Shown piece after piece: positions 30,861-32,888 of a DNA stretch of 58,536 nucleotides. Position numbers and translations under genes: made by a program. The DNA is taken from the sequence record NC_052983.1. One strand, given 5' to 3'. The notes below the pieces were generated by a model. It searched no databases. It was not told where the DNA came from and saw only the letters and a list, made by a program, of their open reading frames with translations. Each line of letters starts with the position of its first letter. Position 1 is the first letter of the stretch. This stretch comes from Escherichia phage E21.

Positions 30861-31325
30861 ATGAAATTAGTATACATAGCTGGCCCATACCGCGCAGACA
30901 CCAAAGAGGGCGTGGCTGAAAATATCCGTAAGGCACAAGTAATCGGGCTATCTCTAACCACCAACGGACATACATTAGGGGTATTCCCCGTGATCCCTCA
31001 CATGAATACGGCGCACTTTGAGACCCACACTTTAACCGTATCACAAAAATTCAGCGCTTTTATTGAGCCGGTGCCAGATGAATACTGGCTACAAGGAACA
31101 ATGGCATTGATGGAAAAATGCGATGCGGTTTTATTGACGCACCCACAAGCCGGCATAACAAGCAAGGGAACGCGGGCGGAGGTTATGCGCGCTATTGAGT
31201 TGGGTATTCCTGTTTATGACCACATAAACGGTCTACTATCTGACCTTAGAGACGAATCAACGCCTCTACGAAGTATTAATGTTTTGAATGACAAGCGAGA
31301 ATTTCTCGGGGCGGTTGATGAGTGA
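30861..31325 (+). CDS. DUF4406-like / nucleoside 2-deoxyribosyltransferase-like protein
   Basis: N-terminal MKLVYIAGPYRA motif typical of this Rossmann-like family; RBS AGAGGG. Confidence 0.5.
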   Translation: MKLVYIAGPYRADTKEGVAENIRKAQVIGLSLTTNGHTLGVFPVIPHMNTAHFETHTLTVSQKFSAFIEPVPDEYWLQGTMALMEKCDAVLLTHPQAGITSKGTRAEVMRAIELGIPVYDHINGLLSDLRDESTPLRSINVLNDKREFLGAVDE

Positions 31326-31391: not shown

Positions 31392-31410
31392 AAGGGGCGT
31401 AATGCCCCTT
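31392..31410. terminator. bidirectional rho-independent terminator at the convergent junction of the plus early operon and the minus lysis/structural operon
   Basis: AAGGGGC-GUAAU-GCCCCUU perfect 7-bp stem; U-rich on both sides. Confidence 0.7.
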
Positions 31411-31420
31411 TACTTTATTA

Positions 31421-31660
31421 TCAAAACCGGCAAGACCGCTCACCGTCTTCACCACCCCAACCGCACAACCTTTGTCCTAGGCAGTTATGAAATAAAACTT
31501 GGTCGGCCGTTTTAGTAGAAAAGATATCATCTTCACCAATGTAAATCGGTCTGGCTGTTTGGCAAAACGACGGGTTATTTACGGTCTTTACGCAACCAAC
31601 CACTGCGAAGACGATCAGAACTACCGCCGTCCGGTAAGCTATTAATCCCCGAATCGACAT
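31421..31660 (-). CDS. o-spanin-like lipoprotein (Rz1-like)
   Basis: 79 aa; signal sequence with lipobox-like VVGC; Cys/Pro-rich; overlaps the 3' end of the i-spanin candidate in another frame. Confidence 0.5.
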   Translation of the reverse strand: MSIRGLIAYRTAVVLIVFAVVGCVKTVNNPSFCQTARPIYIGEDDIFSTKTADQVLFHNCLGQRLCGWGGEDGERSCRF

Positions 31661-31832
31661 CTTGTTTTACCTCATTAACTCGTTCTTGTTCAATATGGTT
31701 ATCGATAATATCTTCGATAACTTTCTCGTTCTTTCCGTCCTGTTTTCCTTTACGCCACGTTAGGAATAGGAGGACAAAAAAGGCGACGACCCCTAGAGCC
31801 ATCGCCTTGATTTTAGCCCAAAAGGACATCAC
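31575..31832 (-). CDS. i-spanin-like protein (Rz-like)
   Basis: 85 aa; N-terminal TM helix followed by a charged segment. Confidence 0.5.
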   Translation of the reverse strand: MMSFWAKIKAMALGVVAFFVLLFLTWRKGKQDGKNEKVIEDIIDNHIEQERVNEVKQDVDSGINSLPDGGSSDRLRSGWLRKDRK

Positions 31833-32533
31833 TGCCCCAATTTGAATTTACGGTAGCGGACATAGCCGAGGTAAATCCCGATCCCGACGGTGGCGACGCC
31901 GAGGAAGATTCTAGCGTAGTCGCCAGATGAAAGGTCTCCCGAGGCATTGTGTACCGCCTCCTTGACCGGCTGGACGACCTCAACCAACTGAGCGACGCCT
32001 AGTGCTGCGGTGCCGGCTGCTACGGTTGCAGTAGAATTAACGACTTTCGGTTTCTTAGTCACCCCGGCCATACGGAGGGCTTCTTCGATAGTCTCGTCAG
32101 AATACCAAGTGTTTACCGTTTTGCCTTTGAGTGGCCCATTGAAGCCGTTTTCTGTACCGATGATGCCTGACACCAATAAAAACAACTGGTCGTAGTCGTG
32201 CATATCGATAACTTCGTCGTCCGGGCCAACGCCTAGTAGGTCTGCTAAGTTTTTAGCGTATACGTTGGTATTATTCCCTTTCTCCGACCCCGGCGCCCAA
32301 CGCTCAACGATTTCACGCGCGGAGTCGATGCGAGAGCCGTTCTTTGATTTGCGCTTATCGTAATACGTGATTAACGTTACTGCGATCGCACGAATACCAT
32401 AAACCGGATTTACGAATTCACAAAAGCGAGGAGACGTTCTCTCCGCTTTCGGTACTAGCCCCTGCCAAGGAGATCCCCACTCCAAGTTACCCGGGTTATT
32501 TTGTCTGATACCTTTAGGCTTTAAATTCGCCAT
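31829..32533 (-). CDS. putative endolysin / cell-wall hydrolase with C-terminal hydrophobic anchor (family unresolved)
   Basis: Sits between holin-like and spanin genes; start set at ATG 32533 (MANLKPKGIRQNNPGNLEW) with RBS AGGGG; C-terminal hydrophobic stretch FLGVATVGIGIYLGYV. Confidence 0.4.
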   Translation of the reverse strand: MANLKPKGIRQNNPGNLEWGSPWQGLVPKAERTSPRFCEFVNPVYGIRAIAVTLITYYDKRKSKNGSRIDSAREIVERWAPGSEKGNNTNVYAKNLADLLGVGPDDEVIDMHDYDQLFLLVSGIIGTENGFNGPLKGKTVNTWYSDETIEEALRMAGVTKKPKVVNSTATVAAGTAALGVAQLVEVVQPVKEAVHNASGDLSSGDYARIFLGVATVGIGIYLGYVRYRKFKLGQ

Positions 32534-32543
32534 GGTGTTGCCC

Positions 32544-32888
32544 CTATTTTTTATCTGCGAGTTTTTGAACGCTAGTTTTAATGTCTCTAAGGTCTTCGCG
32601 AACTTCACCTCGAAACTGGTTTATTTGTTGTGCGGTATTATGTTTTATATCGGCGATTTCCCGCTCGGCTTGCGTTGTTCGTTGTTCTAGGACTCTAACG
32701 TCAGCCGTGACCAACAAAACATCGTTTCTAACATTGCTAAACTGGTTATTAACCCACATTATACCGCTACACAACGCTGCTATTAGCGAAAGGATAGTCG
32801 GGATATTGATCGCCAAGTCAATGCGAACGCCTCCCGTACCTCCATCTCTACCCGCCATATTGCCCCCGTTATCGGTTCTTATATCCAT
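32544..32888 (-). CDS. holin-like membrane protein (1 TM plus coiled-coil)
   Basis: 114 aa; TM INIPTILSLIAALCSGIMWV; first gene of the lysis cassette. Confidence 0.35.
   Translation of the reverse strand: MDIRTDNGGNMAGRDGGTGGVRIDLAINIPTILSLIAALCSGIMWVNNQFSNVRNDVLLVTADVRVLEQRTTQAEREIADIKHNTAQQINQFRGEVREDLRDIKTSVQKLADKK

Follow-up and report, generated by a model that had tools for sequence, protein, structure and literature searches.

The 234-aa protein encoded in the lysis cassette of Escherichia phage E21 is, by homology, an endolysin of the Enc34/M4Lys type, with an activity known from its homologues, and the locus itself is a lysis cassette of the ordinary kind for a Chi-like Proteus siphophage, one that belongs to the genus Lavrentievavirus in the family Casjensviridae. 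For this enzyme, the present analysis established the homology and the fold, the catalytic residues, the architecture, the synteny and the charge distribution. For the endolysin family, descriptions, a crystal structure and assays are already in the literature, which also treats its C-terminal transmembrane domain (TMD) as unusual. Taken as one joint statement, the reading of the locus as a Chi-like Proteus phage cassette with an Enc34/M4Lys-type endolysin, including the tethered-hairpin lysis mechanism proposed below, is one that we consider very probable.

The lysis cassette and the identity of the endolysin

The window, by which we mean the whole stretch of 58,536 nucleotides that was analysed (NC_052983.1), is a near-complete Lavrentievavirus (Casjensviridae) genome with 98% identity to the Proteus phages DanisaurMW and pPM_01, whose orthologue of the 234-aa protein is annotated in RefSeq as 'endolysin'; a 100% identical copy of the protein is present in one other deposited phage record. 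Four lysis genes, for a one-TMD protein, the 234-aa protein, an i-spanin and an o-spanin, occupy positions 31421-32888 on the minus strand, with the following features:

32544..32888, minus strand: putative holin or 'lysis protein B', Enc34 ORF38 family (ORF, hydropathy, homology)
32533-31829, minus strand: endolysin, 234-aa ORF (ORF list)
32045..32533, minus strand: Enc34/PHA02564-type endolysin catalytic domain, residues 1-163 (PDB 7Q47, phrog_873, AF2/Foldseek)
32150-32152, minus strand: codon of the predicted catalytic Glu128 (alignment to Enc34 E131)
31952..32038, minus strand: helix 1 of the endolysin C-terminal membrane domain, approximately residues 166-194 (hydropathy, alignment, AF2)
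31856..31921, minus strand: helix 2 of the endolysin C-terminal membrane domain, approximately residues 205-226 (hydropathy, alignment, AF2)
31829..31855, minus strand: basic C-terminal tail of the endolysin, RYRKFKLGQ (net +4), and stop codon (sequence, charge)
31575..31832, minus strand: i-spanin with N-terminal TMD, 85 aa (phrog_1026, Enc34 ORF40, 'Chi' spanin family)
31421..31660, minus strand: o-spanin lipoprotein, 79 aa, lipobox VVG-C (phrog_1275, Enc34 ORF41)
31392..31410, no strand assigned: GC-rich hairpin AAGGGGC-GTAAT-GCCCCTT (consensus scan only), likely a bidirectional terminator closing the cassette

An earlier note on this DNA had read the gene order as a Gram-negative lysis cassette, and this was borne out: the four ORFs lie where the note had placed them, and the four genes are homologous to Enc34 ORF38-41 and collinear with them, in the order found in that Hafnia phage, which belongs to Enchivirus as opposed to the Proteus Lavrentievavirus studied here. 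The o-spanin gene had been described as embedded, whereas it is in fact overlapped, having 86 nt (31575-31660) in common with the i-spanin gene and extending past the i-spanin stop, and the same out-of-frame arrangement is seen in Enc34 and Chi. The i-spanin matches phrog_1026 (E=1e-16) and is 35% identical to Enc34 ORF40 (E=2e-13), and the o-spanin matches phrog_1275 (E=4e-17) and is 60% identical to Enc34 ORF41 (E=3e-23). With an N-terminal TMD in the former and a lipobox Cys in the latter, the pair is by its sequence features a two-component, overlapped spanin of the 'Chi' family, which is listed in PMC6139136. Two starts are available to the i-spanin, GTG at 31832 (85 aa) and ATG at 31829 (84 aa); the latter, which shares the A of the endolysin TGA stop, may be the one used. 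The o-spanin gene and a deoxyribosyltransferase gene are convergent, with the hairpin at 31392..31410 between them.

The 234-aa protein starts MANLKPKGIRQNNPGNLEW and ends ARIFLGVATVGIGIYLGYVRYRKFKLGQ. By phmmer, its residues 5-163 match the Enc34 endolysin's crystallised catalytic domain (PDB 7Q47) with E=9e-53, and by BLASTP it is 50.8% identical to full-length Enc34 ORF39 (E=8e-90), an alignment which covers the membrane domain too; among the PHROGs it matches phrog_873, 'endolysin' (E=1e-67). The AF2 model, with pLDDT of 80-96 across most of the catalytic domain, has an all-helical fold resembling the lysozyme alpha-lobe, and the only significant Foldseek matches in the PDB are the two 7Q47 chains (E=1e-14, TM(target) 0.75-0.79), so that the structure prediction proposed in the earlier note as a check returns the 7Q47 fold. 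Residues W79, Y92 and E128 align with W79, Y95 and E131 of Enc34 and are invariant in 46 homologues (50-83% identity). By analogy, the catalytic domain would be a glycosidase in which Glu128 serves as general acid while Trp79 and Tyr92 position the substrate. Enc34 ORF39 (Cernooka et al. 2022, PMC8943055) has the same catalytic domain, Trp/Tyr/Glu residues, two-helix TMD and basic tail; the 234-aa protein is 8 residues shorter, without the insertions that follow the WAP motif and precede the NxWY motif. The family, which had been left unresolved, can thus be given as PHA02564, of Enc34 type and with a lysozyme-like alpha-lobe fold. Pfam returns zero families for the protein at E<=1, and no muralytic domain match, so the earlier statement that no lysozyme, amidase or peptidase motif could be recognised was accurate.

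The earlier note had named, as evidence against a lysin, a match to a non-lytic family together with a canonical endolysin elsewhere in the genome; neither was found: a Pfam search of 30 other ORFs, comprising all tail and large ORFs plus the unassigned early genes, gave no peptidoglycan-hydrolase domain, and the pPM_01 annotation contains no second endolysin. The suggestion of an unusual membrane-tethered enzyme is instead supported, the protein being a close homologue of the assayed Enc34 and M4Lys endolysins.

A two-helix membrane domain at the C-terminus

The C-terminal hydrophobic anchor that had been pointed out is present, the flagged segment being helix 2, but the domain consists of two helices and not one. 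Such an anchor had been called atypical, which agrees with its publication as unusual (PMC6498227, PMC7143992, PMC8943055). The catalytic domain is joined by what would be a short linker to this two-helix domain and its basic tail. In the AF2 model the helices span 167-197 and 205-233, with low pLDDT (42-52) for helix 1. Helix 1 is weakly hydrophobic and Ala/Gly/Thr-rich (mean Kyte-Doolittle 1.3, approximately 57-58% G/A/S/T, 1-2 charged residues), and carries the conserved Gln182 plus an acidic residue. Helix 2, with a mean Kyte-Doolittle value of 1.9, has no charged residue, is preceded by the invariant Ser203-Gly204 and is followed by the basic tail RYRKFK; in the homologue alignment, the conserved positions of the membrane domain include Q182, S203, G204 and G212. 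This succession of a SAR-like first helix, an uncharged second helix and a basic tail is also how a class II holin or pinholin is laid out. When searched alone against Pfam and PHROGs at E<=10, the membrane domain recovered only its own phrog_873 and noise, and membership of a known holin family was rejected, no such family in Pfam or PHROGs being matched.

Averaged over the 46 homologues, the segment before helix 1 has a net charge of +2.65, the loop between the helices one of -1.4 and the tail one of +2.65, a pattern which under the positive-inside rule fits an N-in/C-in hairpin. These charge counts and a crude hydropathy analysis thus favour a hairpin with a cytoplasmic tail. For the Siskin homologue, the published prediction is the same N-in/C-in topology (O'Leary et al. 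2019, PMC6498227), and for M4Lys Bai et al. predicted the opposite one, with a periplasmic N-terminus (PMC7143992).

The SAR endolysins, among them P1 Lyz and phage 21 R, are likewise muralytic enzymes tethered to the membrane, and they too have a weakly hydrophobic, Gly/Ala/Ser/Thr-rich helix. Unlike in those enzymes, the anchor here is C-terminal and composed of two helices, the catalytic fold is unrelated to T4- and P1-type lysozymes, and the lysis brought about by a homologue is insensitive to azide. Nor is there an N-terminal signal-anchor of the SAR type: the first 36 residues of the 234-aa protein contain no hydrophobic window, and the sole N-terminal stretch scoring at least 1.0, residues 37-58, largely coincides with a helix of the catalytic core (43-60 in the model).

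The function of the membrane domain can be approached through its homologues. The C-terminal TMD architecture was reported for 'lysis protein A' of Chi and Siskin (O'Leary et al. 2019, PMC6498227), and this protein and M4Lys of Salmonella phage BSPM4 share both family and architecture with the 234-aa protein. Chivirus homologues are approximately 57% identical over their full length; the M4Lys sequence has itself diverged, and the identity to it is deduced through other Chiviruses. M4Lys has mainly an N-acetylglucosaminidase-type activity (Bai et al. 2020, PMC7143992) and degrades peptidoglycan without its TMD; the full-length protein lyses E. coli alone, despite azide, in a holin- and Sec-independent manner, while removal of the TMD, or deletion of the last 13 residues, leads to loss of lysis, and the TMD by itself is bacteriostatic (PMC7143992). 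The catalytic domain of Enc34 is active on permeabilised cells, with toxicity arising from the full-length protein only (PMC8943055). LysAP, an endolysin of Acidovorax phage AP1, likewise carries its TMD at the C-terminus, with basic residues after it, and this TMD is needed for both lysis and membrane localisation (PMC8879335). By analogy with its homologues M4Lys and Enc34 ORF39, the E21 enzyme would be muralytic and would lyse cells in a manner dependent on its TMD and independent of holin and Sec. Lysis by the homologues without a holin was observed under strong recombinant over-expression only, and is possibly an artefact according to the Enc34 authors (PMC8943055).

The upstream gene and the route to lysis

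The longest ORF of the upstream gene (32888-32544) encodes 114 aa; residues 21-47 form its one hydrophobic stretch, and the tail behind it is coiled-coil-like. Translation probably starts at Met11 (position 32858), giving 104 aa, as suggested by a GGGGG Shine-Dalgarno-like run 5 nt upstream of that codon and by the lengths of the closest database homologues (102-105 aa) and of pPM_01 gp34, annotated as 104 aa. The TMD opens with a family-invariant D-L-x-x-N-x-P-T, and the helical tail comprises approximately 68 aa. Homologues occur in 149 phage records, nearly all of them Chi-like, and the protein is 34% identical to the Enc34 'holin' ORF38 (E=1e-18). Calling it a holin-like gene with one transmembrane segment was correct as to the single TMD and matches the provisional label in the literature, but neither Pfam nor PHROGs gives a holin match. 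The family assigned in PHROGs, phrog_7686 (E=1e-43), is labelled 'Rz-like spanin', a label we did not adopt: the cassette already has a complete i-/o-spanin pair further downstream, and the label probably reflects a TMD-plus-coiled-coil composition. An exhaustive HMMER search also brought up five proteins of 930-2148 aa, in each of which 6-11 stretches matched; these were discarded as relatives, since the two of the five that were inspected are repeat proteins in which '...LTINQPT...' motifs mimic DLTINxPT by chance.

As to the mechanism of lysis, we propose that the endolysin would be made without a signal sequence and anchored on the cytoplasmic side of the inner membrane by an N-in/C-in helical hairpin. 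We infer that the hairpin itself may perturb the membrane in a holin-like manner, such that sufficient accumulation would breach the membrane and allow the catalytic domain to reach the murein, with the 104-aa membrane protein possibly tuning this breach and the overlapped spanin pair then disrupting the outer membrane. Gene content elsewhere supports self-sufficiency of the endolysin: in Aeromonas phage LAh_7 the same TMD-endolysin and spanins occur without any small TMD gene upstream, and in E. coli phage CMS-2020a an unrelated small TMD gene takes the upstream position.

A stronger version of this proposal, in which Chi-like phages lyse without a true holin, the endolysin hairpin both timing lysis and exporting its own enzyme under antiholin- or releasin-like regulation by the upstream protein, is something we would put forward only tentatively. 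The 104-aa protein would then be a membrane-tethered, cytoplasmic regulator of the endolysin membrane domain, a role that we regard as possible yet rather improbable. Its absence from LAh_7 and replacement in CMS-2020a speak for such a role, as do data on ORF_37 of BSPM4, which holds the same cassette position and which in E. coli is non-toxic, does not act as a holin, fails to rescue a TMD-less endolysin and delays lysis slightly rather than speeding it (PMC7143992), although expression in E. coli may not mirror infection. HolAP, the partner of LysAP, in contrast arrests growth and enhances lysis, neither of which ORF_37 does (PMC8879335, PMC7143992). The architecture, an N-terminal TMD and a helical tail of approximately 70 aa, resembles that of the Mu releasin gp25 (Chamblee et al. 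2022, PMC9239132), and the Siskin homologue is predicted to be N-out/C-in (O'Leary et al. 2019, PMC6498227); the charges flanking the TMD in the upstream family (mean -0.45 before, 0 in the first 15 residues after) are biased only weakly and are a weak topology signal. Of 22 family members, 5 show faint collinear matches to DUF2730 (PF10805), the best at E=0.012, and in a one-to-one BLASTP with Mu gp25 the E value is 0.003. However, the Pfam match of the upstream protein itself (13.9 bits, E=0.06-0.08) is below the cut-off of 24.9, and homology to DUF2730 was rejected because hhalign assigns a probability of only 3.1% to the match between the family profile and Mu gp25, coiled-coil families unrelated to DUF2730 score equally well or better, and Enc34 ORF38 has no DUF2730 match. 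Mu gp25 also lacks the DLxxNxPT motif of the upstream family, and its gene lies downstream of the endolysin gene, as opposed to 5' of it here. The Pseudomonas Mu-like phage MP22 carries an Enc34-type catalytic domain; a pairing with a DUF2730 gene was discarded, none of six neighbouring ORFs matching.

One could also speculate that only helix 2 spans the membrane (N-out/C-in), in a mirror image of a SAR endolysin, with an inactive tethered enzyme in the periplasm being freed or activated upon depolarisation by an upstream pinholin. We consider this unlikely. Phobius and Phyre2 predicted N-out/C-in for M4Lys, which has three basic residues in its tail (PMC7143992), the Enc34 authors raise a SAR-like tether-and-release with a pinholin partner (PMC8943055), and the hydrophobicity of helix 1 is too weak for a confident TMD assignment. 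Against this, export of an N-terminal domain of approximately 200 residues by way of a C-terminal anchor corresponds to no known pathway (PMC8943055), lysis by M4Lys is azide-insensitive and BSPM4 ORF_37 neither harms cells nor speeds lysis (PMC7143992), and the basic segment before helix 1 and the acidic inter-helix loop fit the hairpin. Finally, the domain was first catalogued as virion protein 'V' or P5 and forms part of tape-measure, injection and internal virion proteins (phrog_7182, phrog_2276, phrog_992), of Kayfunavirus internal virion protein D and of Gp29 in PDB 9VVP, yet it is very improbable that the 234-aa protein is a virion-associated entry hydrolase, given that it is a small stand-alone protein with a membrane domain, encoded between a holin-like gene and spanins, that homologues lyse cells from within (PMC7143992), and that the ORFs scanned contain no other endolysin candidate.

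Meaning for the endolysin family

The main yield of the analysis is the correction of an annotation gap: a lysin considered unresolved falls in a published, structurally solved endolysin family, which goes unmentioned in a 2026 paper on Proteus phage endolysins. The catalytic domain might possibly be useful as an enzybiotic against P. mirabilis. The Enc34 study of 2022 raises the same export puzzle (PMC8943055), and the holin tests made so far on the protein in the position of the partner 'holin' in BSPM4 have turned out negative (PMC7143992). For work on export and timing, the Proteus member provides one more sequence-diverse example.

Layout and genomic context of the lysis genes

Along its entire length the window shares 96-98.5% identity with about 26 Proteus phage genomes, each about 58.5 kb long, and is thus essentially a single complete phage genome. 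These near-identical phages, among them DanisaurMW, pPM_01, PM87 and RP6, are classified in the genus Lavrentievavirus, family Casjensviridae (Chi-like siphophages). Genomes 96-98% identical to the window also stand in the databases under the names "Enterococcus phage AS-M1_NWU", "Staphylococcus phage SVV09-A", "Pseudomonas phage E21" and several "Salmonella phage SD-1x" entries; for a Lavrentievavirus of Proteus whose spanin cassette is of the Gram-negative kind such hosts are implausible, and the names probably reflect contamination or mis-assignment.

Four closely spaced ORFs occupy 31421-32888 on the minus strand, confirming the four-gene lysis cassette that the earlier note had placed there. 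The features of the region are as follows.

34854-32869, minus strand: 661-aa ORF directly upstream of the cassette, with a short repeated motif (..RNVVYQI..FRARS..) in its N-terminal part
32888-32544, minus strand: putative holin ORF, 114 aa, one hydrophobic stretch (residues 21-47), then a coiled-coil-like tail
32533-31829, minus strand: endolysin ORF, 234 aa
31832-31575, minus strand: i-spanin ORF, 85 aa, N-terminal transmembrane domain (TMD)
31660-31421, minus strand: o-spanin ORF, 79 aa, signal/lipobox ...VFAVVG|C
31392-31410: GC-rich hairpin closing the cassette, between it and the convergent deoxyribosyltransferase gene
30861-31325, plus strand: counterpart of a nucleoside 2-deoxyribosyltransferase (annotation from pPM_01), convergent with the cassette

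The TGA stop of the endolysin overlaps the start codon of the i-spanin, which is either GTG or an ATG at 31829 that shares the A of the stop and may be the alternative start of an 84-aa product. The o-spanin gene had been described as embedded; it is instead overlapped with the i-spanin gene, the two sharing 86 nt, and these spanins are indeed listed as the "Chi" family, of overlapped architecture, by Kongari et al. (PMC6139136). For the first gene, Met11 is the most likely start and gives 104 aa: a GGGGG run lies 5 nt upstream, database homologues measure 102-105 aa, pPM_01 gp34 has 104 aa, and the longest ORF would overlap the 661-aa ORF by 20 nt. The latter, for which Pfam gives no match, probably encodes a tail fibre or receptor-binding protein. 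A hint that phages of this group modify their DNA bases comes from pPM_01, in whose annotation a PAPS-reductase-like protein and a Mom-like DNA modification protein also appear.

Assignment of the 234-aa protein

Pfam holds no model for the 234-aa protein, which explains why no muralytic motif had been recognised in it from sequence. Its family, previously called unresolved, is the published Enc34/M4Lys type. In PHROGs the protein falls in phrog_873 "endolysin" (E=1e-67), residues 5-163 match the PDB entry for the Enc34 endolysin's catalytic domain (7Q47_A, E=9e-53), and an alignment with full-length Enc34 ORF39, membrane domain included, shows 50.8% identity across 236 columns. The structure prediction proposed as a check agrees: in an AlphaFold2 model built from 46 homologues the catalytic domain is confidently predicted, and the only significant Foldseek matches in the PDB are both 7Q47 chains (E=1e-14, target-normalised TM 0.75-0.79). 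Glu131, Trp79 and Tyr95, named as catalytic or substrate-positioning in Enc34 (PMC8943055), align with Glu128, Trp79 and Tyr92, which are invariant across the 46-sequence alignment. Together, these lines of evidence argue that the protein belongs to the Enc34-type endolysin family (NCBI PHA02564) in every respect that can be tested computationally. The annotation of close relatives concurs, since the pPM_01 orthologue gp33 is already an "endolysin" in RefSeq and "lysis protein A" in GenBank records; a protein of 100% identity is encoded by another deposited phage record, and an identical entry is present in the protein collection searched.

The rest of the cassette follows the same pattern. 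Enc34 ORF38-41 have the same order as the four genes here, with identities of 34% (E=1e-18) between the putative holin and ORF38 ("holin"), 35% between the i-spanin and ORF40 and 60% between the o-spanin and ORF41; homology and orthologous gene order thus support the suggestion of an unusual membrane-tethered lysin in a Gram-negative cassette. The earlier note would have been contradicted by a non-lytic family together with a canonical endolysin elsewhere. Neither is seen: the protein falls in an endolysin family, Pfam finds no peptidoglycan-hydrolase domain in 30 further ORFs, which take in every tail protein, the tape measure and the unassigned early genes, and the pPM_01 annotation contains no second endolysin. 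PDB 9VVP chain L (Gp29, 1295 aa; E=3e-7), a large phage protein of solved structure, likewise begins with an Enc34-type catalytic domain and illustrates the use of this domain as a virion-borne lysin elsewhere.

The C-terminal membrane domain

Endolysins with a C-terminal TMD are already known as a kind, from work on Siskin, M4Lys, Enc34 and LysAP of Acidovorax phage AP1 (PMC8879335). In the Chi-like phage Siskin, O'Leary et al. (2019) described two proteins that they termed potentially new classes: a putative endolysin whose C-terminal part carries two TMDs (N-in, C-in), and a putative holin with a single TMD (N-out, C-in) (PMC6498227). For M4Lys of phage BSPM4, Bai et al. (2020) found that the TMD-less protein degrades peptidoglycan to mainly N-acetylglucosaminidase-type products, that the full-length protein on its own lyses E. 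coli, azide notwithstanding, that lysis is abolished by TMD deletion or by loss of the last 13 residues alone, and that the TMD by itself is bacteriostatic (PMC7143992). Cernooka et al. (2022) solved the Enc34 catalytic domain, showed that it acts on permeabilised cells of E. coli, P. aeruginosa and Hafnia, and saw in its fold a relationship to the alpha-lobe of lysozyme-like GH73/GH23 enzymes; the anchor's atypical position, also remarked on in the earlier note, is a puzzle they had discussed, as a C-terminal anchor is unable to serve as an export signal (PMC8943055).

The C-terminal membrane region comprises two helices (about 166-194 and 205-226) rather than one, the hydrophobic segment noted before being the second of them, and is followed by a basic tail. 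Across the 46 homologues its conservation goes beyond plain hydrophobicity: Gly179, Gln182 and Val190 in helix 1 and Gly212 in helix 2 are nearly invariant, and Ala193 and, just before helix 2, Ser203-Gly204 are invariant. On admittedly crude scales, helix 1, for which AlphaFold2 confidence is low, is weakly hydrophobic (mean Kyte-Doolittle 1.3, 57% Gly/Ala/Ser/Thr, mostly one or two charged residues, summed insertion energy about +7.5), and helix 2 is uncharged and more hydrophobic (mean 1.9, energy about +2). The 15 residues ahead of helix 1 and the tail each average a net charge of +2.65, against -1.4 for the loop; by the positive-inside rule this pattern favours an N-in/C-in hairpin that tethers the catalytic domain at the cytoplasmic face. 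The predicted layout, in which the first helix is weakly hydrophobic, the second is rich in small residues and the tail is basic and cytoplasmic, resembles that of class II holins and pinholins, with no sequence relation to holin families detectable in Pfam or PHROGs.

The upstream one-TMD protein

An exhaustive HMMER search recovered only about 20 full-length clusters of the putative holin's family, a family of Chi-like phages (50% identity level, 1.8 billion representative proteins). When aligned, they share an invariant D-L-x-x-N-x-P-T at the N-terminal border of their single TMD, together with a conserved LRxExRxDLRDIK-like helix. Pfam does not assign the family, and its PHROGs and RefSeq name, "Rz-like spanin", is probably wrong, given the complete spanin pair downstream. 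Five proteins of 930-2148 aa also give 6-11 matches each to residues 8-43 of the 104-aa form used as query; in the two inspected, "...CDSxVxLxLTINQPT..." repeats bear a chance likeness to DLTINxPT, and we rejected them as homologues.

In BSPM4 the corresponding "lysis protein B" (ORF_37) shows no toxicity, fails to rescue the TMD-less enzyme and causes a slight delay in lysis (PMC7143992). These data and the protein's architecture recall the "releasin" gp25 of phage Mu (DUF2730), which is cytoplasmic but tethered to the membrane and takes the place of a holin there (PMC9239132), so that a regulator or releasin-like role can be entertained as a minority hypothesis. Homology to DUF2730 is not supported: the score of 13.9 bits falls short of the 24.9 cut-off, only 5 of 22 relatives give matches, all faint, unrelated coiled-coil families match equally well, and hhalign gives a probability of 3% against gp25. 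The flanking charges give only a weak N-out/C-in signal. On these results we retain the label putative holin.

Two other loci suggest that an ORF38-like partner is not obligatory for this endolysin type, and may be interchangeable or dispensable. Aeromonas phage LAh_7 (525-3074 of its locus) has the same TMD-endolysin and spanins with no small TMD gene upstream, a 473-aa protein lying directly there; E. coli phage CMS-2020a (1643-3073) has the same TMD-bearing endolysin and spanin pair and no ORF38-like gene, in whose position lies an unrelated protein of 111 aa with its TMD at the C-terminus. An intrinsically membrane-active hairpin would fit such a non-obligatory partner. The route of these enzymes to the wall, and the presence of a true holin in these phages, are questions for the whole family that the literature already recognises.
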